Part shown: piece by piece, positions 31,138 through 57,556 of the stretch | How positions within the stretch are numbered: the first letter of the stretch is position 1 | Layout of the letters: every line of letters begins with the position of its first letter | Assembly: GCF_038025025.1 (NCBI RefSeq) | Contig: NW_027117348.1 | Span: 1,550,001 to 1,614,000 of the forward strand | Direction of reading: 5' to 3' | Source: Phyllosticta citribraziliensis | Lineage: Eukaryota | DNA: 64,000 nucleotides | The notes under the pieces: model-generated | The model's input: the letters and a program-made list of their open reading frames with translations, nothing else | The model's database searches: none | What the model was told of the DNA's origin: nothing | Position numbers and translations under genes: made by a program

Positions 31138-34100
31138 ATGTCTGACACGCAATCCGAAGCCGACAAGGTATCTAGCTCCGCCGCTCTGTGCGCCGTGTTT
31201 AGCTCACGTTCGTCAGATCCGCAACAAGCGCCTGGCAAAGCTGGGAGGAGGCACGCCCTCAGTCTCTGCTTCACAGTCCTCCATCGATCCCGCCGCCGCA
31301 CCAGGATCACCGTCACCAGGCCCCGCCGCACCCCAGACCGAACAGAGCGCACCCCGACCTGCGAGCATCGAAAGCTCCAAGGTCGCCACAGGCCCCGCCG
31401 CCAGCCCAACTTCACATCTCTCGCACAAGCCGGCCTCTCCTGCACCAGCGGTCGACATCTCACAGAAGCCATCGCTGCCTCAGAAGCGCGACAATGAGAG
31501 CGATACACCACAACGTCCGCGACCGGCGGCGCAGGAGTCTTTGGAGGTCTGGCAGCACAAGGCCTTGAGTCACATTTTCAGGGCAACCTTGGACGAGAAT
31601 ACCAAGCAGGACGCGCATGGAAACCGGCTTTCACATCTCCCGGGCGTCAAGTCGGACCTTGAGGACGCCGGCAGCCCATTGCTGCTGAGCACCAACGTGT
31701 TGGACCAGGCAATCTTGGAGGCGGCATCGAGCCACAAAAAGCCATTGGACTACCTGCTCGGATGCTGGAAGCGGGTGGCAAGACAGGCGCGGGGCGCGAG
31801 CACGGCAGACAAGAATGATCCAGGCCGTTCCGAGGTCCTGAAGGAGGCCCGGAGGCTTTGCATGAGCTATTGCATGTTCGCCGTGACGATGCCCGACATG
31901 TTTGGCATAGACTCGTGGCAGTCCAATCCCCTGGCTCCGCACCTCCTGGTCGACCCCGAAGACGACAGAGGCCTCTGCCACGACTTTTTGAATGAGGCGG
32001 TTTCCCGGTTCGAGGAGGACGAAAGCATCAAGGAAGCTTTGGTCGGGGCCATGGAGCAGCTGAGCATCGAGCTCGCGTCCAAAAACATGAACGATGACTA
32101 CAAGGGCTACGTCCTGGCTCTGCGAAACGTCTCGCAATACCCTCCACTCATCAAGGCCCTTGCAGAGTCGCCCAGATTTCTGCCCTCCGACGTTGATGGC
32201 CCGAGGCTTGAGACGGACACTCTGCTTGGCCCGTTCTTCAAGCTGTCTCCGCTCCAGGCCGAGACTGCCTTGACCTACTTTTCAGACGCCCGCGGCAGGG
32301 ACAAGTCGGTCACCTTGAACGCACAAAAGGCACTCCGCATGACCTTGTCCACTCATCATGACGAACTCTTCGAAGTCGCCAATCGCTTCATTCGCGTCAA
32401 GGACTCCCGGAGCAAGATGCTGGACTGGTTTGCGGCCACGGTGAACAAGAACCACAAGAGAAGGGCCATGCGAGTGGACCTGAAAAAGGTCTCGTCCGAC
32501 GGCTTCATGCACAACGTCACCGTCATTCTCGACAGGCTGTGCGATCCATTCATGGACTCGACCTTTTCAAAGATTGACCGCATCGACATTGGCTACTTGA
32601 AGAGAAACCCACGGGTCGACATCAAGGAGGAGACCAAGTTCAACGCAGACCAGCAGGCCTCGGATGAATTTTACGACATGAAGCTGGATGGCGAAAACAA
32701 CTTCATCACCGAGTGCTTCTTCCTGACAGTTGCTGCCCATCACTACGGCACAGAGGCGATCAAGAGCAAGGCCTCCCAGCTCCAAAAGGATGTCAAGTAC
32801 ATGGAGCGCGAACTGGAAAAGTTGGAGAAGGAAAGGCACAAGTACGCCCATGTAAGACGGCTCCACCCACTCCCCAAATCACCACTGACAATCCCAGAAC
32901 CCAATCTCGCTTCGACAGTTTGAGAATGCCATCAAAAAGTACAAGGACGCCATTGAGAGGGCCCACTGCACAATTTTGGCGACTCAAGGAGTTCTCCTCG
33001 ACGAGACTACCGAAGGACGCGCCATGCAGTTCATGCGCTACGTCATTGTCTGGCTGCTGCGCATCGTGAGCCCCGGATACCCACAGCAAAAGTTGAAGCT
33101 TCCTCTCCCCGAAGAGCAGCCAGAGGCCTTCAAGTTCCTGCCCGAGTACTTTTTGGAAGACGTGGTCGAGAACTTCAAGTTCATCACGCACATGATGCCG
33201 CACGTCATCACTTCGACGCAGTGCGAGGAGCTCATCGCCATTTGCATCACCTTCCTCCGCAGCTCGTCGTATATCAAGAACCCCTACCTCAAGTCTGGTC
33301 TCATCACCATCCTCTACTACGGGACTCTGCCATACTACGGCAAATCCAAGGGTGTCTTTGGAGACTTGTTGTTTGCGTGGCCGTTTGCGACCGACAACTT
33401 GCTGCACGCTCTGCTGCAGTTTTATATCGAGTGTGAGTCTACCGGCGCACACACCCAATTTTACGACAAGTTCAACATTCGCCTGGAAATCTTCCAGGTT
33501 ATCAAGTGTATCTGGGGCAACCCCATCTACCGGGAGCATCTGGCCAGGGAAGCGAACCACAACCTGAACTTTTTCGTCCGCTTCGTCAACCTGCTCCTGA
33601 ACGACGTCACCTTTGTTCTTGACGAGTCTTTTTCGGCGTTTACGTCCATCACCAACCTCACCAAGGAACTCCGGGACCCCTCGCATCTGGATGAGAATAT
33701 CCGAAAAGAGAAGGAGGAGCTCTTGGAATCTTCCAAGTCAAGGGCCAAGAGCTACATGAGCCTTACCAATGAGACTGTGGCCATGCTCAAGCTCTTTACT
33801 GAGGCCTTGAGCGACTCTTTCACGATGCCAGAAATCGTCCAGCGCCTGGCGGACATGCTGGATTACAACCTGGACGCTCTCGTGGGCCCGAAGCAGTCGA
33901 ATCTGAAGCTGGAGAACCCGCAGGAGTACGGCTTCAACGCCAAATCCATGCTTGCCGAGATTGTCGACGTGTACCTCAACCTCAAAGAAAAGGACAGTTT
34001 CCTCACAGCCGTGGCAAGAGACGGCCGCTCGTACAAGCCCGAAAACTTCAACAAAGCGGGCAACATCATGCGGCGGTTCGCCCTCAAGAGCGAGGAGGAA

Positions 34101-47666: not shown

Positions 47667-48291
47667 ATGGCTACGCTCCACTGTACGCCGTCCCCCTCTC
47701 TCACCATCCCTTTGCCCACCCTCTCCATCACCTCAACCACGGCACACATCGCTAACAGCACGCCCAACAAACAGACCTCCCGCCCGTCAAGCCCAGCGCC
47801 ATCGCCTTCGGCACGGCCTACACGCACGCCATCTCGCTGGCGGTGCTCGGCCCCGTCTTCGGCTCGGCGTACCGCGAGGCGCAGCGCGCCAACACCAAGG
47901 AGGAGTTCTTCCGCAGCAAGGAGACGGCGACGGCGGCCGCCAGCTGGGGCAGCAGCGTGCTGGGCGGCGTCGTGCAGACGTACGGCGTCGCGGCCCTCAT
48001 CAATGCCACGGGCACTCTCAGCTACAAGGGCGCTGCGTACCTGGGCAGCTTGGTGTTTTTGGCCAGCTCTGGCCCCTCGGTAAGTCTTTGTCTTTTCTGT
48101 TTTTCTGTTCTTGTTCTTGTTCTGGTTTTTGCAAGTGCTGATGTGTGGTTTTGCAGTTGATCTCGGCTTTCATCACTGAGAAGCGTCCCCTCGACACCAT
48201 TGCCGTCGGCACCCTCACGCGCCTGGCCGAGACGGTCGGCCTCAGCTTGATCCTGACGTACTGGGGCACCCGCACCAATCCCTTTGACTAA
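47667..48291 (+). CDS. Small multi-pass membrane protein, DUF1761-like
   Basis: Spliced MATLHYLPPVKPSAIAFGTAYTHAISLAVLGPVFG...TLSYKGAAYLGSLVFLASSGPS/LISAFITEKRPLDTIAVG...WGTRTNPFD*. Two canonical introns. Confidence 0.8.
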
Positions 48292-50425
48292 ACGCGTGCT
48301 TGCGCAGTGACGACGGAGGAGGAGAATACCAAGGCAGATGGTGGTGGAACCTGCCGTTGCTAAATGAGTGAGAGGGTGGGTCTGGGATTTGCGGCGTTGT
48401 ACGAACATCAGGGAAATACATGCGATTCAAGAGTGCCATGCTGTCGATCTGCGAATGATGCTGCTTTGCCATGGCGTGATGACGGCAATGTGTGGTGCTT
48501 CGATCGATGGAGGATGAGGGCCGGTCCCGTCACTGCTCGTTCACCCTGACGTCATGGCTCAGCCACGCCACTGCCGCGGCGGGAGGAATCAAGGATCAAA
48601 ACGCTTCCGCAACATCATCCCCATTCAACCACCTACCTTGGCTAGGTTCCTAAAACCTATCCCTGCAGCCGCGGCAGCGCCAAAGACGACGCGTCGAGCC
48701 AAACTACATGTACCACATGTACGTGCAGCAGAATGCTTACGACGCGGCCGTCGCTAATCGAGACAAGTCGACCAGTGCTGTTGTTGGTGTTGTTATTCTT
48801 CGGTTGCACATGCCCCTTTCTCGCGCGCTGCCTGTGTTTTGCCGCCGTGATGCAATACCGGTAGGAGTAGGGGTTGGGGTAGCGAGCCGCGGCACAGTAC
48901 CGTACACGCGTACCGCAGCGCCTGTCGACCTTGCGCTACGCATTGTGAGACGGTTGCCGGGCGGACTAAGGGATGTAGGTAGGTGATTCGGTACTGGAGC
49001 AGGACGACGCAGATGGGGAGGCAGGGAGAAGCGCGCGGAGTCAGGAGTAAGGTAGGCAAGGTCGGTGCGGGAGTATTGCTTTAGGTACCCAGGTAGGAGT
49101 AGATGCAGGTAAGGAGTTGGAGAGATGAGGAGAAGCACGCGAGCAACAGCCAGCCGGCCAGCGCGGACAGAAGAGCGGCGTCAGCTCGCTCGCTCGCTTG
49201 TTTGCCTTGGTGAGCGAGCCATACGGCGGTGCCGTCTACTACGTGCGCAGGCAGCAGATAGATAGTGGCGATTTGAGGCGCGTACCGCGGTTAGTCGTTC
49301 GCGTGTTGGGGGTGGGTACATGTAGGAACCAGAGCGTGGATTTGGGAATGGAGCAGTAATGGCAGTGACAATAAGATCCAGAAATAGAGCCGATACTGTA
49401 TGCGCTCGTACGGCACAGGGGGGGGGCGTCTGCAGCTCGTGGCGTGTTCTGTACGAGTTCCGTCAGGTTCTTGTCTGAGCTGCATGAGGACTGCGGTACG
49501 GTGCGGTGCGGTGCGGTGCGGAGCCGCTGGCCGCGCTGCCTCCCTCCCACTCCTGACCTGACATGCCTGACCAGTGCAAGTAAGAGAGAGAGAGAGAAAA
49601 AGCAGGGCATGGCGCACGCACGCACAGCCTGCCCGCCTGCCTGTGCCAGCTCCTTTTTCGCTGCTGCGTATATAACCCACACATCCCCCCGGTCTTGATG
49701 ACTGCTCCGCTCTCCGTCTTTCCAGTCTCCACCACTGTTCCATCCGGCCTCCCTTCTCCTGCTCCGTCAACAATCATCATCAATACTACCACCATCCCGA
49801 TCCCCATCATCCTACGTCTGCAGATGCCGAGTGCCGCCCCCCGGATCCCACCACCGACGTCTTTTCCGTGGACCACAACTACGCCTTGAACGACCGCTCC
49901 TCGCCGCCGTTTGCTTACCTACTTTGTGAACGCAACGCACCTGAAATCCCCAAATTGCCGGCTCTCCTTGGACCGCTCTTCCCTCCGACCAGGTCATTCA
50001 AGGACCTGGATACCCATGGGCTGAGATAGACCCACCACCAAAAGGCCTCGAAGAAGAATCCAAACGACTCCCGATTCCGCGTCCACTACTCGAACGGCAC
50101 TCTGCTGCGTTGCCGCTCTAGTTCCCGGGTCCAAGCGTTTCATAACCTTTGCTGCCAGGCCAGCAGGTTTTTTTGCCAGACACTGTTTTTGGGTCATTCA
50201 GTTCGGCCCTTTTGCCCGCCCTTTTTCTTGTTCTCTCCTGAAACTCTCGACTGCGGGAGAAAGAAGGCAAGACATCACGCGACACGCTCGGAATTAGTTG
50301 TCCAGCGCCACAACTCGCAACGACAGCACGCAAGATACCTGGCACCACCATCACCATCAGCACACCAGCACATCACCTAAAAGAAAAAGAAACAATCTCC
50401 TCCGTTCCCATTGACCACCGCAATA

Positions 50426-50656
50426 ATGCCTCCCTGGACTTACCTCCCCGCCCTCCCCGTCTCCACCCCCATGCCCGCCGCCCACAAATCCTCAAAGATC
50501 TGGACCGGCAAGAAGACCCTGTCGCCTCCGCCGCCCGACGCTGCGCAGCAGCAGCAGCACCAGCAGCAGCGCGACCAGCAGCGCCCGGAGCCTGCCTCGC
50601 GCGGCGCCTCTGCCGACGACGACGCGGATGCGCGGCATGCTGGCGACGGCCGGTGA
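50426..50656 (+). CDS. Small hypothetical protein (76 aa)
   Basis: ATAATG start context, strongly C/G-ending codons, MPPWTYLPALPVSTPMPAAHKSSKIWTGKKTLSPPPP followed by a Q-rich segment. TATATAA lies about 750 bp upstream near 49669. Confidence 0.45.
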   Translation: MPPWTYLPALPVSTPMPAAHKSSKIWTGKKTLSPPPPDAAQQQQHQQQRDQQRPEPASRGASADDDADARHAGDGR

Positions 50657-51389
50657 TGCGCGAGTGAGCGAGCGAGCTGACCTGGCTGGGTGGCTGGGTG
50701 GCTGGTTCGGAGTGGAGTGGAGTTATTAATTGGATTGGATTGTGTTGGGGTGTCTGAAGTGCCGCTGGGGTGTGAGTCGTGCAGTGGAGTGGATTGAAGA
50801 TCAGGCCGAGCAGCGCCGCTACCGTTGCGGCACCTGTCCGGGTCGTGTCATGTTGTTTGGATCATTGAACGCAGGAGTCTGCGTCGTTGATCGTTGGTCG
50901 GTCGTCGGTCATTTGATGCATTTCGTTCTAGAGATTTAGAGTACTCAACGGGCGTACTTGGTTGTATGTACGTGCGCCAATTGGATGACGCAGCGGCTCG
51001 CCATCTCCTGCTCTGTGGTTTGTTTAGCTGCTGCTCGTCTTCAAGCCAGCCAGCCGGCCGTTGAGTGGACGGAAGATGAGAAAAGGAGAGGAGAGGAGAG
51101 ATCTGTCTGTCTGTGTCAGTTCATCAGCATTTCCACCACATCAACCCCGGCGTCAACCTAGAGAAGAAAAGCCATCATCCTTTTCATCCATTTATACTCA
51201 ACACCAAAATGCAATAACACTGTCCACAAACACCAACCATCAAGCAAAAACACAAAAACACAACCACCAAGCAGTCATTTGTCGTTCGCTGCTTCACCGC
51301 GACAGTCATATGTCGCCCTGCCTTCACCTGCAGGCGCGGCGGCGACGTGTGCTGGTTGCAGTGTGTTGAGGAGGGTGGGAGACGGGGAG

Positions 51390-51714
51390 TTTTATAGGTG
51401 GTGTGGTGGATGTGTGGCGTGCCGTGGGCGGTGGTGAGTGAGGACCTGATGGCGGGTGAGTCAACGGGGTCGTGCGCGTGGCATAGGCACGGGGAGGCAT
51501 GGGGAGGCACGTGTAAGCGCTGGGAGCAGTCATGCGCTGCGCTGTGCTGTGGTAGGCTTGGGGTATAAAACTACACCTCCTTGCGCCCATACCTTTCTCT
51601 CGTCAAAGTGACTTGCGGAGTTGGTCTAACTCACACCTCCTAGCGAGATGCCACTCTTCTGCTCTCTGCAGCATTGATTGCTGCTCGCAATGACTCTTTT
51701 TTCTTTTTTCCTTT

Positions 51715-51746
<32 letters not shown>

Positions 51747-54700
51747 GCTCTAAAAACCCCTGATTCCTCTTTTCTGCTAGCGGTGATCGTCATCTGATAG
51801 TGCTGACCAGCTCAAGTATTCCTTACAGCAGAGCAGCATCACTACACAACCATGACGAGTATCGCTGGAATGCCACGCTAGTGACAGCGGCTCCGGCTAC
51901 ACAAAAGCAAAGACGAAAGAAGCAAGTCGGCGATTGCGGCATGACGGAGCGAGGAAAGTAGCCACACTCCAGTGTCTTTGTCGCTCAACTCGCCAATTGA
52001 TGGTTGACGGATGCAGGCAGACAGCGCGGTCAGGATGGCAATTTATACCTGCCTCCCATGAGTTCTTCTTCACACGGAGAAATGGCGCGAGCGCATGCCA
52101 AAGCGGTCGTTAATGACGCAGTGGCGTCGGAATCAGTGGTATAAAAGTCTACCAGCCCGCCTCTTTATTCCTCTCATTGTGCTACTCCAAGAGTCACGAC
52201 CTCCACACATAGAGAGACATTGGTACTTTGCGCGCCCGTCGAAACTCTACAAGTTCTGCACTTTTTCCTGGTTTGTCTGGCTTGAAGATGATGGAATTGG
52301 AAAATCATTCAGGGGTCATGACGATGAGTACCGTGATTACTGCGCGAATGCACGTCAACACCGCAACAGAATAATAAAGAAAGTCGCCGCTGACCGCAGA
52401 GAAAGAGGAGGGAGCGAATATCTGCTGAAATCCAGTGCTCAAGAACACAGTGGCTCTCTTTCTGGGATATTTCCGATGGTTCATAAATCCACACCCTCCG
52501 TTTTGCGGGAAGCAGATGTAGGCAAAAGATAGAGCGACTAGGAGATTTTTATACCTCTAACTCAGCACTATCACAAGGAAAATGCGCGGCCACATGCCAT
52601 CGCGCCCTCTATGCGCCATCTGATCGCATCACGCGAGCGCGCTCTATCCTCTACGCTCAGTTTCCAACCCGGCAAGTATAAAAACAGACCCCCCTACTCT
52701 TGATCCTTTCCTCATCTCGCTGCCTTGAGTGGAATATCTAGGAGTAGGAAGAACTCACTGCTTGTTTCGCGCACAACTTCTTTCCTGGCGTCACTCTTTC
52801 TTCTTCCTGTTGGTCGCAGAAGTCTTTCCCCTCCAGCAGGAACTTTACCCCTGACTAGCATATACTGATGCTGTCGGCCACGGATTTGATGGATGCGTAG
52901 AAGCGCGGAACGTCGTTATTAGATGGTGACGGAGTACCCCTGAGTCTAGAGGAAAGAGGAAGTTGAATGTGTCCGGGAAACCCCCGAAACAACGAAAGTA
53001 GAAATGAAAGAAAAGTGGCGGCTCTTTTATACCTCTCAACAGCCGCTGGCACGTGGGAAAGGGGGCGAGCGCGTGTGCCGCCGACCTTCGCGAAAACTGT
53101 GATTGCCGTGGCAGTGAGCTTGTGATTAAGATGTGGAGTGGATATAAAACAACCCTCCCTGCCTCCTTGTCTCCTTGCTAATCGACCACTGATCCTGCTA
53201 GCCAACAAGACGGCTGAGACAATGTCAAGGAAAACAGGCGCACTGTGCTCCGGCTTGAGCTGTGGGTAGCGACCTTTTTTTGCGCCGCAGGACTCCAGAC
53301 GCTGAAAAATGTGCTCACTTACTTAAAAGCGGGCGCGTGGTGCTTGTGTGCAGCGTCAGGGGATAATGGCATTCCCCCCTTTCCACAGACAATTTTCAAC
53401 AGCATTGCCGTGCAGCGTCAATCTAGGCTCCCCCCAACGCTGCAGCAGACATAGAAACGGAGGAAAGGATCAAGGTCAAAAGACACAACACGCAGAAAAC
53501 AGTGTGTCGGAGTAACTAGTCTTCCCAAGTCAATTGTAGCCAAGGGGATGACCTCTGACTGCAGGACACTGCGCGCAAAAATCCAGCAGCGCGGGGAGGA
53601 GTACGTCTTTTATACCGCCCGCCTGTCAGAAGCAAGAGAAGAACAGAGGGACCACATGCTCGACGATGAGGCGGCACTGCGTCGCTGTCACGCGCTGACT
53701 GCGTGATCTGCGCGCTAGGCTCTAGTAACCGGCGAAGTATAAAAGTAACCTTCTCTATCCCTCTTTTCGGCTTTTGTCAACAGCGCAGTGAGCTTCCAAG
53801 TAGGATCCAGATGATTGACCTCTCTATACTGCTGCTCTTGCGCTGTAGCCTCGTAGCGGCATCCCTGACTTTTCTTTTGTGGTGGGACGCGCCCTGAGTT
53901 AAGGGTGAGTTCTGTCGAGGGAGGCTGTCACTTTTCCCCTGAGTAGAGTAGTATATGCTGTTACTCTTCACTATTAAAAGGTAAAAATGAAGGTATCCCT
54001 ATCGTCACGTAGCGCTTCTAATCATCACCAACAGAAAGTGAGAGTGCCGGCTTCAGACCAGGAGAAAAACAAGGAACACGAGTGGGCTGTTCGCGCGCAG
54101 GTAAAGCACGCCAAAGAGAAGAGTGCCAATTTTCTCGCAGATTAAGCCGCAAGACGCAATCGCCCATGTGGTCAGCCAGAAGACTCAGCAGTGAGAGGGC
54201 TTTTATACTCGCCTGACTGCGCTGAAAGGAAAGGCACATGTCGAAAGAAGCGCAGCAGCAGCGTCGTAGTCACGCGCTCTGGCTCCGTGCTCCAGGCTCC
54301 AACGTCTGCTCCAGCCGTCCACATATAAAACCAACCCCTCTACTCCTCACGTCTCCCTCTCAGAAGCGCAACAAGCCAAGTCGTTTGGCATGCCGGTCGT
54401 CTGCCTCCGCTCCTACTGGACTGTGTCCTGCGTCGGGGACAGGAGATACACATTCTACCCAGCAACTGCGCGTGTTTGTGGAGGGAGAGTGCGACGAAGG
54501 GCGGGGTGCGCTGGCCGTGAAGTCTAGAACTGTAGAGTTGCGTCGATTTCTTCGGCGTTCAGGGATGGCGATGAGTATCATTGCTCGAAGGCGTGTGTTG
54601 ACGTCGTCGCGTGGCAGTGATGGCTTTCAAGTATGCCGTCTTGCCAGGGGCGCGCGGCCAGAACGACGTGGGAAAGAAAAGGAGGAACAGTCATCAGAAA

Positions 54701-55601
54701 AAGTGACGACATAAAGTCGACCAGGGTCCAGTTCAATGAGCTCTGGACTGCAGGACGCTGGCTGGCCTGTTGCAGTGCTGCCATGGCCGTCGGAAGGCCG
54801 TCTTTTATACCTAGGAGTCAGTCAACCACAAGCCAGCGCAGCAGATCCACCCCATGCCCTGTCCAACCGACTGACACCTGCCACTCACATGCTCCTAGTG
54901 CACAAGTCGCGCGTCAGCTGTCTTGCCAGCACTAGGCTCCGCTTCCGCTCCCGGCTTCGTCATCGTCATGTGTCTGCTGCCTGCCTGCTGCCTACTCCCC
55001 CTTCACAGGTATAAGAGCCAGACCTCCCTCCACTCTGACTGCATCATCGAGCCAGTCGAAGCGGTACTGAAGAGTGCTCCGATTGGAGGCTCGACTGTCT
55101 TTGCGCTCGAGCCTGCAGCGTCCCATCACTGGCTGTGCCGGCGGGGCTGCGTGCGCTTGAGGAGAGGACGGGAGAAGGCGTGATGTGCTGCTGTGCTCTT
55201 CCTGGCTAGCCATCGGTATGTGATGGTGATGTTGAGTCGTATCTTGCCTTGAAGATGCGCTTCACCATGAAGTCGGCATGGCGTGCCACTGGAATATATC
55301 AGTGCATGGGCGATAGACAAAGTAGAAAGAGACCAGAGTGCTCGCGGCGTGAACAAGGGAGACGGCGCACCGAAGAAAGAGTTCCGTGGAGTACTGGGAG
55401 GAAGACCGAGGTTCTTCACACTCGGGGGTGGTTGAGCACTGCAGCGCCAGCATGTCTCTTCCATAGCAGCGCGAACAGTGTCTTTTATACCGCAGAACTC
55501 GCAGGTCCTCGGACCCCTGATCTGCCACATGCAGACTCCACAGTCGACACAATCACACGCTCCACTCTTGACTCACCTCGCCTCTCCCGCGGCGTATAAA
55601 A
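51390..55601. promoter_or_regulatory. Array of eight divergent TATA-box pairs (putative bidirectional promoter repeats)
   Basis: Minus/plus TATA starts: 51390/51564, 52042/52140, 52547/52677, 53025/53143, 53608/53738, 54201/54324, 54803/55010 (TATAAGA), 55483/55595. CACRTG lies inside seven of the eight pairs. Confidence 0.7.
51717..51746. repeat. (GCTT)n microsatellite
   Basis: About seven tandem GCTT units read directly. Confidence 0.9.
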
Positions 55602-55978
55602 ACTCTCTGCCAACCCGCCACAACTCCTCTCCATCAGCCACCGCTTGCCGTCAACACACGCCACCAACCCAACCACAGTCTTGTGGCGGCAACCATACGG
55701 CAAAGCTGTACTAATCTCCCTTTCGTGTCCTTGGGTCGGGATGCGGTAAGGAGCTGCTGGTGGGTCAGTCGACATGGAGACAAGTGTCGAGGCGAGGAGA
55801 TCTACAGCACTGTCTGTCAATGAAGATGAGAGGCGCAAAGGCGGTGTCGATTTTCATTTCGCGATGCTGTCTTGTCTCTACGCAGGAGCGGCAGGCAAGA
55901 AGGGCGGCTTGAGCTTAGATAATGCGGGCGTGCAAACCGTGAGCACCCATGAGGCGGTCTCAGTCTGCCTCGCTTTCA

Positions 55979-57556
<1,578 letters not shown>

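Follow-up and report, generated by a model that had tools for sequence, protein, structure and literature searches.

An array of eight pairs of opposed TATA boxes in non-coding DNA of Phyllosticta citribraziliensis

Transcription that overlaps on both DNA strands, and promoters that point in two directions, are known from several settings that each resemble in part the element described here. This element is a periodic array of paired TATA boxes at positions 51390-55601 of a 64,000-base stretch of the fungus Phyllosticta citribraziliensis (RefSeq assembly GCF_038025025.1, contig NW_027117348.1, positions 1,550,001 to 1,614,000 of the forward strand), which was analysed as a whole and is called the window below. 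In each pair, or module, a box facing the minus strand is followed by a box facing the plus strand, and neighboring modules are separated by spacers. Among described systems, the loci of Dicer-independent small interfering RNAs (disiRNAs) are ordinary convergent gene pairs. At these loci in Neurospora crassa, convergent transcription leads to Dicer-independent small RNAs and to dynamic DNA methylation (PMC3764098). The proposed trigger is sense and antisense transcription that overlaps in gene-rich DNA. The array is comparable in that its spacers are flanked by predicted promoters that face inward. With regard to sense and antisense overlap of this kind, contigs of public runs over the array show a putative minus-strand intron beside an equally abundant unspliced form. 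Unlike disiRNA loci, however, it consists of periodic modules that look like dedicated promoters, and its host is a Dothideomycete.

Bidirectional TATA promoters of divergent gene pairs, such as those of histones H2A-H2B and H3-H4 and of yeast GAL1-GAL10, provide a second comparison. As in the modules, two TATA boxes point outward from a stretch of 100-200 bp that contains upstream elements common to both. These promoters serve conserved protein genes, either as single promoters or in conserved arrays, whereas the payload of the present array appears to be non-coding and unconserved, and its module is repeated eightfold. Where tested, the array does not show the full set of defining features of either disiRNA loci or divergent-gene-pair promoters.

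More distant parallels can also be drawn. In the type-I 21U-RNA (PIWI-interacting RNA, or piRNA) clusters of Caenorhabditis elegans, many mini transcription units share a region; conservation applies to a small promoter motif upstream of them, whereas what is transcribed can change freely. The analogy with the array is one of logic only, because those clusters belong to another kingdom, use another motif and pathway, have units of tens of bases instead of 0.5 kb, and are not tandem-periodic; furthermore, we know of no PIWI pathway in fungi. Engineered cassettes for RNA interference (RNAi) used in fungi place a short insert between two convergent promoters to yield double-stranded RNA (dsRNA), and each spacer of the array has this same geometry, although the cassettes are artificial and the array would be natural and repeated eight times. 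Finally, yeast promoters can contain tandem repeats, and promoter minisatellites with TATA boxes are known. These likewise repeat TATA boxes in non-coding DNA, but their units measure 10-50 bp, are highly identical and belong to one promoter, whereas the units of the array measure 0.5-0.7 kb, are nearly unalignable and carry two opposed boxes. In the open-access literature searched, no account of paired TATA modules in a periodic array was found. Overall, the array is real, statistically extreme, probably transcribed and non-coding, and promoter activity is predicted for it.

The case for the array rests first on simple counts, which agree with the original prediction of eight alternating minus/plus TATA pairs, of a period of 478-680 bp and of few such boxes elsewhere in the window. 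All seven copies of TATAAAA in the window lie within the array (51564, 52140, 52677, 53143, 53738, 54324 and 55595), as do seven of the eight copies of TTTTATA (51390, 52547, 53025, 53608, 54201, 54803 and 55483), which leaves the TTTTATA at 33420 as the only perfect heptamer outside. The two remaining boxes are one-off variants, TTTATAC at 52042 (TATAAAT on the minus strand) and TATAAGA at 55010. These 14 perfect heptamers and two single-base variants make 16 boxes, the orientation of which alternates strictly from one end of the array to the other. The binomial chance that at least 14 of 15 heptamers fall within 4,212 of 64,000 bases is 4e-16, and the chance of strict alternation among 16 oriented boxes is 3e-5. 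The predicted period applies to the minus boxes, and the plus boxes follow one another at 466-686 bp; the distance from box to box is 98-207 bp inside a pair and 348-479 bp between pairs. Most box sequences had also been given correctly, except that the first minus box reads GTTTTATAGG and not CTTTTATAC.

Longer words and outside DNA lead to the same result. With at most one mismatch, the octamer GTATAAAA has 29 matches on both strands of the window, compared to 9.92 +/- 3.02 in 100 dinucleotide shuffles, none of which reaches 29. Array boxes account for 16 of these matches, and every one of the 11 exact octamers in the window lies inside the array. Whether such a density of TATA boxes is ordinary was examined with these shuffles and with 29 fungal-type loci (GC at least 0.5) that had been fetched for another purpose. 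The latter contain 7 TATAAAA or TTTTATA heptamers in 196,237 bases (0.036 per kb), relative to which the array, with 14 in 4.2 kb, is about 90-fold denser. The observed array of boxes is thereby confirmed as real and far beyond chance. Its modules, with one additional variant box to their left, are as follows.

51190-51197, minus strand: GTATAAAT, a 17th box of variant sequence that faces the minus strand, 200 bp to the left of module 1
51390-51570, unstranded: module 1, from GTTTTATAGG on the plus strand to plus-facing GTATAAAA, 174 bp box to box; CACGTG at 51508
52042-52146, unstranded: module 2, from the variant minus box TTTATACC (TATAAAT) to GTATAAAA, 98 bp; CGCATG at the E-box position
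52547-52683, unstranded: module 3, from TTTTATACC to GTATAAAA, 130 bp; CCACATGC at 52590 and TCACGCG at 52629
53025-53149, unstranded: module 4, from TTTTATACC to ATATAAAA, 118 bp; CACGTG at 53050
53608-53744, unstranded: module 5, from TTTTATACC to GTATAAAA, 130 bp; CCACATGC at 53652 and GTCACGCGC at 53687
54201-54330, unstranded: module 6, from TTTTATACT to ATATAAAA, 123 bp; CACATG at 54235 and GTCACGCGC at 54269
54803-55016, unstranded: module 7, the longest, from TTTTATACC to the variant GTATAAGA, 207 bp; CACATGC at 54886
55483-55601, unstranded: module 8, from TTTTATACC to GTATAAAA, 112 bp; CCACATGC at 55525 and TCACACGC at 55553

The surroundings of the boxes have the layout of fungal core promoters. 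A short consensus, GGTATAAAAG, is followed outward by a pyrimidine tract of about 30 nt. When all 16 boxes are placed in register on their own strands, a single extended consensus, gaGGTATAAAAg, emerges for both orientations, with a pyrimidine-rich run to about +32. C and T make up 78% of the first 30 nt behind plus boxes and 65% behind minus boxes (own strand), against a window mean of 50% (sd 12%, in 45-nt windows), as had been expected of the C/T-rich tracts noted outward of both box orientations. Behind all eight plus boxes a CA about 29-33 nt past the box closes the tract, and the minus boxes of modules 1-4 have a similar layout. Minus and plus core regions can even be alike past the box, as with 52524-52557 and 53734-53767 (34 nt, 71% complementary). 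The composition is also mirror-symmetric, given that a second pyrimidine-rich zone is found 90-150 nt downstream in both orientations (0.60/0.59 for plus and 0.60/0.70 for minus boxes). The transcript to the left of the array has its own promoter with this same layout, consisting of GTATATAA and a C/T tract at 49668, and a GTATATAA-type box with a C/T tract appears to be the look of strong promoters in this genome. Two opposed boxes within a few hundred bp, each with an outward start region, are the sequence-level marks of a bidirectional core promoter for RNA polymerase II (Pol II), and they are present in all eight modules.

Module interiors are richer in GC than the spacers (61% versus 53%) and share short words. 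GCACATG with at most one mismatch occurs in all eight interiors, a number that 2 of 60 shuffles reach in a word enumeration, and the exact CACATG occurs in five of the eight. An E-box-like CAC[AG]TG is present on the plus strand of seven modules, usually 43-52 nt from the minus box, and 30 times in the window as a whole. A second motif, TCACGCGC, was picked by eye 28-54 nt before the plus box and is not above chance by word enumeration. A scan for bacterial-type promoters and terminators gave chance-level results and is irrelevant to a fungus. Also, RNA polymerase III units, with a TATA start and a T-run stop, were ruled out by eye; runs of five or more T occur early inside spacers 1, 2 and 4.

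Evidence for transcription comes from four public runs compared as contigs, which give no starts, strands or levels. Two of the runs, X1 and X2, bear the same organism label, and their contigs match the window without differences at very unequal depths. X1 covers the whole array and breaks only at a (TTGC)8 repeat and at a splice branch; over 51754-55289 one X1 contig of 3,571 nt is continuous, which speaks against introns elsewhere. The splice branch corresponds to one feature.

55289-55370, minus strand: putative 82-nt intron, GTGCGC ... CTGAT ... CAG, GT..AG on the minus strand (a CT..AC joint)

The branch-like CTGAT lies 12 nt before the AG. The spliced path has a depth of 453.8 in X1 and the unspliced path 296.3, and the spliced joint is also found in a further run, X5. 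This joint is probably due to splicing, although it may instead be a DNA deletion variant. On the basis of the GT..AG joint and the very unequal contig depths, X1, X2 and X5, none of which is recorded as RNA, are taken as RNA, and the intron-like joint indicates that the array locus is probably transcribed. The stretches that X2 leaves without cover (51468-51810, 53032-53447, 54431-54875 and 55915-56008) are no evidence of silence. Adapter remnants are present at three X2 contig ends (53031, 53448 and 56009), and as strand marks they are only a hint, being single records with an assumed library type. As a separate matter, metagenome run X3 contains a second haplotype of the module 7 interior (54812-54977), with 19 substitutions and two single-base deletions over about 165 nt. 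Its depth is low (2.6-4.6), and contigs identical to the window occur alongside it; a related strain or species would thus carry a diverged module 7.

Some of these contig ends bear on the main rival explanation, which is considered unlikely. It holds that the locus consists of eight head-to-tail plus-strand mini-genes that start at GTATAAAA and end at (C)TTTTATAC(C), such that each apparent minus TATA box would be a 3'-end or termination element. The plus boxes do have the better core-promoter layout, both in pyrimidine content and in the CA found behind every one of them, and the contig of the left plus-strand neighbor ends 77 nt past the first TTTTATA. Similarly, the X2 contig end at 53031 falls inside the TTTTATAC of module 4, where the adapter would be oriented as a plus-sense fragment end, by analogy with the contig end at 56009 in the gene to the right of the array (single records in both cases). 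TTTTTATA has been named among the feature sequences of yeast terminators (PMC7334043). However, the whole 10-nt consensus and, in part, the pyrimidine tract recur at the minus boxes, which would not be required of a T-rich terminator, and the composition of the spacers is mirror-symmetric. Furthermore, the putative minus-strand intron points to use of the other strand as well, and contigs bridge the boxes.

If the boxes do act as promoters, then the seven spacers would be their payload.

51571-52041, unstranded: spacer 1, flanked by inward-facing boxes; non-coding; (TTGC)8 at 51715-51746
52147-52546, unstranded: spacer 2, non-coding
52684-53024, unstranded: spacer 3, non-coding; the shortest
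53150-53607, unstranded: spacer 4, non-coding
53745-54200, unstranded: spacer 5, non-coding
54331-54802, unstranded: spacer 6, non-coding
55017-55482, unstranded: spacer 7, non-coding; contains the sole splice joint seen

The (TTGC)8 microsatellite of spacer 1 is the repeat that breaks the X1 contigs. Between the leader behind plus box 3 (52699-52713) and the purine tract of spacer 4 (53460-53474) there is a perfect inverted match of 15 nt, CTTGATCCTTTCCTC / GAGGAAAGGATCAAG. By a rough estimate, about 0.01 such matches are expected in random sequence, and more given the C/T and G/A bias.

The 4.2 kb had been described as lacking any recognizable gene and the spacers as diverged and without a shared peptide, and both descriptions survive closer inspection. 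No peptide, length or position is common to the open reading frames (ORFs) behind the 16 boxes. The GC content at third codon positions (GC3) reaches at most 0.68 in spacer frames of at least 45 codons, and the single higher value, 0.75, belongs to a frame inside module 1; nearby genes have values of 0.86-0.88 (methionine aminopeptidase 2, MAP2) and 0.81 (DnaJ). None of 11 ORFs reaches the Pfam cut-off (best E 0.083), and a search for relatives of the longest minus-strand ORF, of 134 aa, found none. These results make it very unlikely that the locus is a cluster of very short, fast-evolving protein genes, with one or two micropeptides or small secreted peptides encoded per spacer. ORFs of 10-112 aa that begin with ATG do lie behind every box, and several are hydrophobic or rich in Cys (35 aa at 51690, 28 aa at 53811, 41 aa at 51309 and 39 aa at 51942), but their first ATG is anywhere from 25 to 245 nt from the box, they have no peptide, length or position in common, and the spacer frames show no GC3 bias at the length of at least 45 codons at which it was measured.

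A cluster of structured small RNA genes, such as small nucleolar RNAs (snoRNAs), RNAs resembling small nuclear RNAs (snRNAs) or hairpin precursors, each with a TATA promoter, is largely refuted and seems hardly credible. Independent TATA-driven small RNA genes exist in fungi, and the size of the units would fit one or two small RNAs. Yet Rfam searches with permissive filters returned only two chance-level matches, to vertebrate long non-coding RNA models (E 4.1 and 6.1). Between 51000 and 56100 a search for box C/D snoRNAs gave no candidate that joins a canonical box C to a box D with a terminal stem, and one RTGATGA only; H/ACA snoRNAs were not specifically scanned. Folding of the spacers on either strand is indistinguishable from that of shuffles (z +1.30 to -2.20). 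Modules folded as RNA closed by their two boxes give z values of +0.52 to -3.34, mostly weak, and this signal is expected because the boxes form a built-in inverted repeat. Word enumeration finds no conserved short word above the null in the spacers, and the array has no similarity to the rest of the window. As far as sequence tells, the payload is non-coding and unstructured.

The units nevertheless retain traces of a shared history. Residual similarity between particular modules extends past the boxes (repeat families D2, D13 and D15) and fits common descent by tandem duplication. MAFFT aligns the units with a mean column identity of 40% and the modules with one of 37%. The spacers are beyond alignment, and no spacer-to-spacer similarity is significant, the best blastn pair being 25 nt long with an E of 0.013. 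An old tandem amplification in which only the promoter was kept, as originally proposed, agrees with the residual similarity of the modules and its loss from the spacers; promoter firing at the boxes, the other part of the proposal, is a prediction.

Several classes of repeats were considered for this DNA. Head-to-tail units alignable at about 70% or more, as in a satellite, are seen neither in the MAFFT identities nor in the best spacer pair. Tandem Repeats Finder (TRF) reports microsatellites only, which is a weak test given that its longest period is 500 and the unit periods are 466-686. Miniature inverted-repeat transposable elements (MITEs), other transposons with terminal inverted repeats and solo long terminal repeats (LTRs) would be marked by inverted ends, a target-site duplication and dispersed copies. 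Inverted 10-mers are present, and no target-site duplication could be read in the flanks. Further copies of the array are absent from the rest of the window and from 79 metagenome loci that encode MAP2 relatives. There is also no signature of repeat-induced point mutation (RIP), for which the thresholds are a TpA/ApT above 0.89 and a (CpA+TpG)/(ApC+GpT) below 1.03; the array has values of 0.82 and 1.28, and the whole window 0.58 and 1.24. By the tests run, the array is not a satellite, MITE, LTR, snoRNA cluster or coding family, and the match to an LTR, MITE or snoRNA cluster that would have told against the original prediction was sought in each case and not found.

A decaying, functionless relic of an old tandem duplication, be it of a gene pair, a satellite or a mobile element such as a MITE or solo LTR, whose boxes would owe their survival to chance or gene conversion, is viewed as most improbable. 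The 10-nt inverted repeat that bounds each module and spacer, as in a MITE, and the randomised state of the spacers are what such a relic could leave behind. But 14 of the 16 boxes are perfect while the spacers have lost all similarity, and neutral decay would not spare the boxes. The periodic positions, the lack of a readable target-site duplication in the flanks, the missing copies in the window and the 79 related loci and the missing RIP signature speak against a relic as well, as does the lack of a long-period array in the TRF output, although with a longest period of 500 that program was hardly able to reveal one.

The explanation tentatively favored, which is judged possible while falling somewhat short of probable, is that of a lineage-specific array made up of short, non-coding transcription units of Pol II, whose bidirectional TATA core promoter would be held by selection while the transcribed DNA would drift. 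The locus would comprise eight old, strongly diverged tandem copies of a 0.47-0.69 kb unit. What has been kept in each unit would be a GC-rich module of 98-207 bp that has a Pol II core promoter facing outward at either end, made of GGTATAAAAG, about 30 nt of pyrimidines and then a CA-type start region, with an E-box-like CAC(A/G)TG inside most modules. The DNA between modules would be a non-coding, unstructured and freely evolving payload. Every module is presumed to fire divergently, and if adjacent modules do so, then each spacer of 348-479 bp would be transcribed from both sides. The output would be short overlapping sense and antisense RNAs, with a function that might reside in transcription itself or in the dsRNA formed, and not in an encoded product. 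Arguments for constraint are the 14 perfect heptamers beside randomised spacers, an extended consensus that is the same in both orientations, and the mirror symmetry of spacer composition. A more specific version, regarded as doubtful, is a multi-cassette dsRNA factory whose eight modules, with their promoters under selection, would use convergent inserts of about 0.4 kb to yield dsRNAs or small RNAs, the sequences of which could change freely.

Several observations weigh against an array of firing promoters. The pyrimidine tract is weak (47%) behind minus boxes 7 and 8, and the second inner motif (TCACGCG) is present in seven of eight modules but not above chance, given that 26 of 60 shuffles reach at least seven. 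Contigs bridge modules 2, 3, 5, 6 and 8, which means that some RNA runs through the supposed promoters. Likewise, in X5 the contig with the minus-strand splice continues as far as 55521. This position lies about 30 nt upstream of module 8's minus box, and this minus-strand RNA therefore does not start at the nearest TATA box. The original interpretation is thus supported in part: both box orientations share one core consensus, and these bridging contigs and this upstream beginning speak against it. Moreover, the RNA nature of X1, X2 and X5 is itself an interpretation of the intron-like joint and the unequal depths, and selection on the boxes is proposed only from their survival beside randomised spacers in one species.

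Some of the same observations might be explained at the level of DNA. Modules bound by the TATA-binding protein (TBP) and by E-box factors could serve as a chromatin boundary, a nucleosome-free buffer or a factor sink between two convergent, well-expressed genes, with the RNA being a by-product or read-through. The whole 4.5 kb that separates the convergent left transcript and MAP2 is taken up by the array, and its GC-rich module islands are bounded by AT boxes. The contigs that bridge modules, the spliced RNA that begins upstream of the nearest box and a payload without constraint are also in keeping with such an element. Nonetheless, oriented pyrimidine tracts and a CA start region are features of firing promoters and not of mere binding sites, and no fungal precedent for such a boundary was found in the open-access literature. 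This explanation is deemed quite improbable.

The features that flank the array are the following.

49668-51467, plus strand: left neighbor transcript, with the GTATATAA box and pyrimidine tract at 49668; its X2 contig (about 49692-51467) runs into module 1
55602-55914, plus strand: right flank of the last plus box, directed at the MAP2 3' end; contig-covered, with no sign of coding
56009-57468, minus strand: right neighbor MAP2 (stop codon 56066-56068), oriented toward the plus-facing boxes

The left neighbor is about 1.8 kb long and well covered, with a leader of about 735 nt, and its sole notable ORF encodes 77 aa rich in Pro and Gln (50427-50657) that have no Pfam match. This transcript may itself be non-coding. 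The DNA upstream of it (GACATGCC ... GCGCACGCACGC ... GTATATAA) loosely resembles an array module. Farther left, a small two-exon gene on the plus strand (47667-48290) encodes a hydrophobic product, probably a membrane protein, behind a 5' leader rich in C and A. On the other side, the main exon of MAP2 is 100% identical to a Phyllosticta citribraziliensis protein cluster and 96% identical to the P. capitalensis protein over the aligned part, which places the window in Phyllosticta (Dothideomycetes, Botryosphaeriales).

Synteny next to MAP2 was proposed as another source of evidence. The 79 loci encode MAP2 relatives of 61-83% identity, and 33 of these loci are at least 3.5 kb long. No box array lies beside the MAP2 relative in any of these 33 or in the shorter loci, which are all too distant to date the array or to support an inference on the genus Phyllosticta. 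The comparison thus shows that the array is not seen in these distant loci and carries no information on close relatives.

With its 16 boxes, the array would provide a compact natural series of variants on a single strong core promoter from a Dothideomycete fungus. If the boxes are silent, the 14 perfect heptamers among randomised spacers would pose a puzzle of DNA-level conservation that is still unusual. If the boxes fire, the locus would be a clean natural case of selection on promoters regardless of what is transcribed. It would then bear on the origin and persistence of non-coding transcription units, on dedicated fungal source loci for dsRNA or small RNA that are defined by promoter architecture, and on the buffering of convergent genes from each other. 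Should the dsRNA factory prove true, the array would be a fungal counterpart of promoter-defined small-RNA clusters, and its products could feed endogenous or cross-kingdom silencing in plant-associated Phyllosticta.

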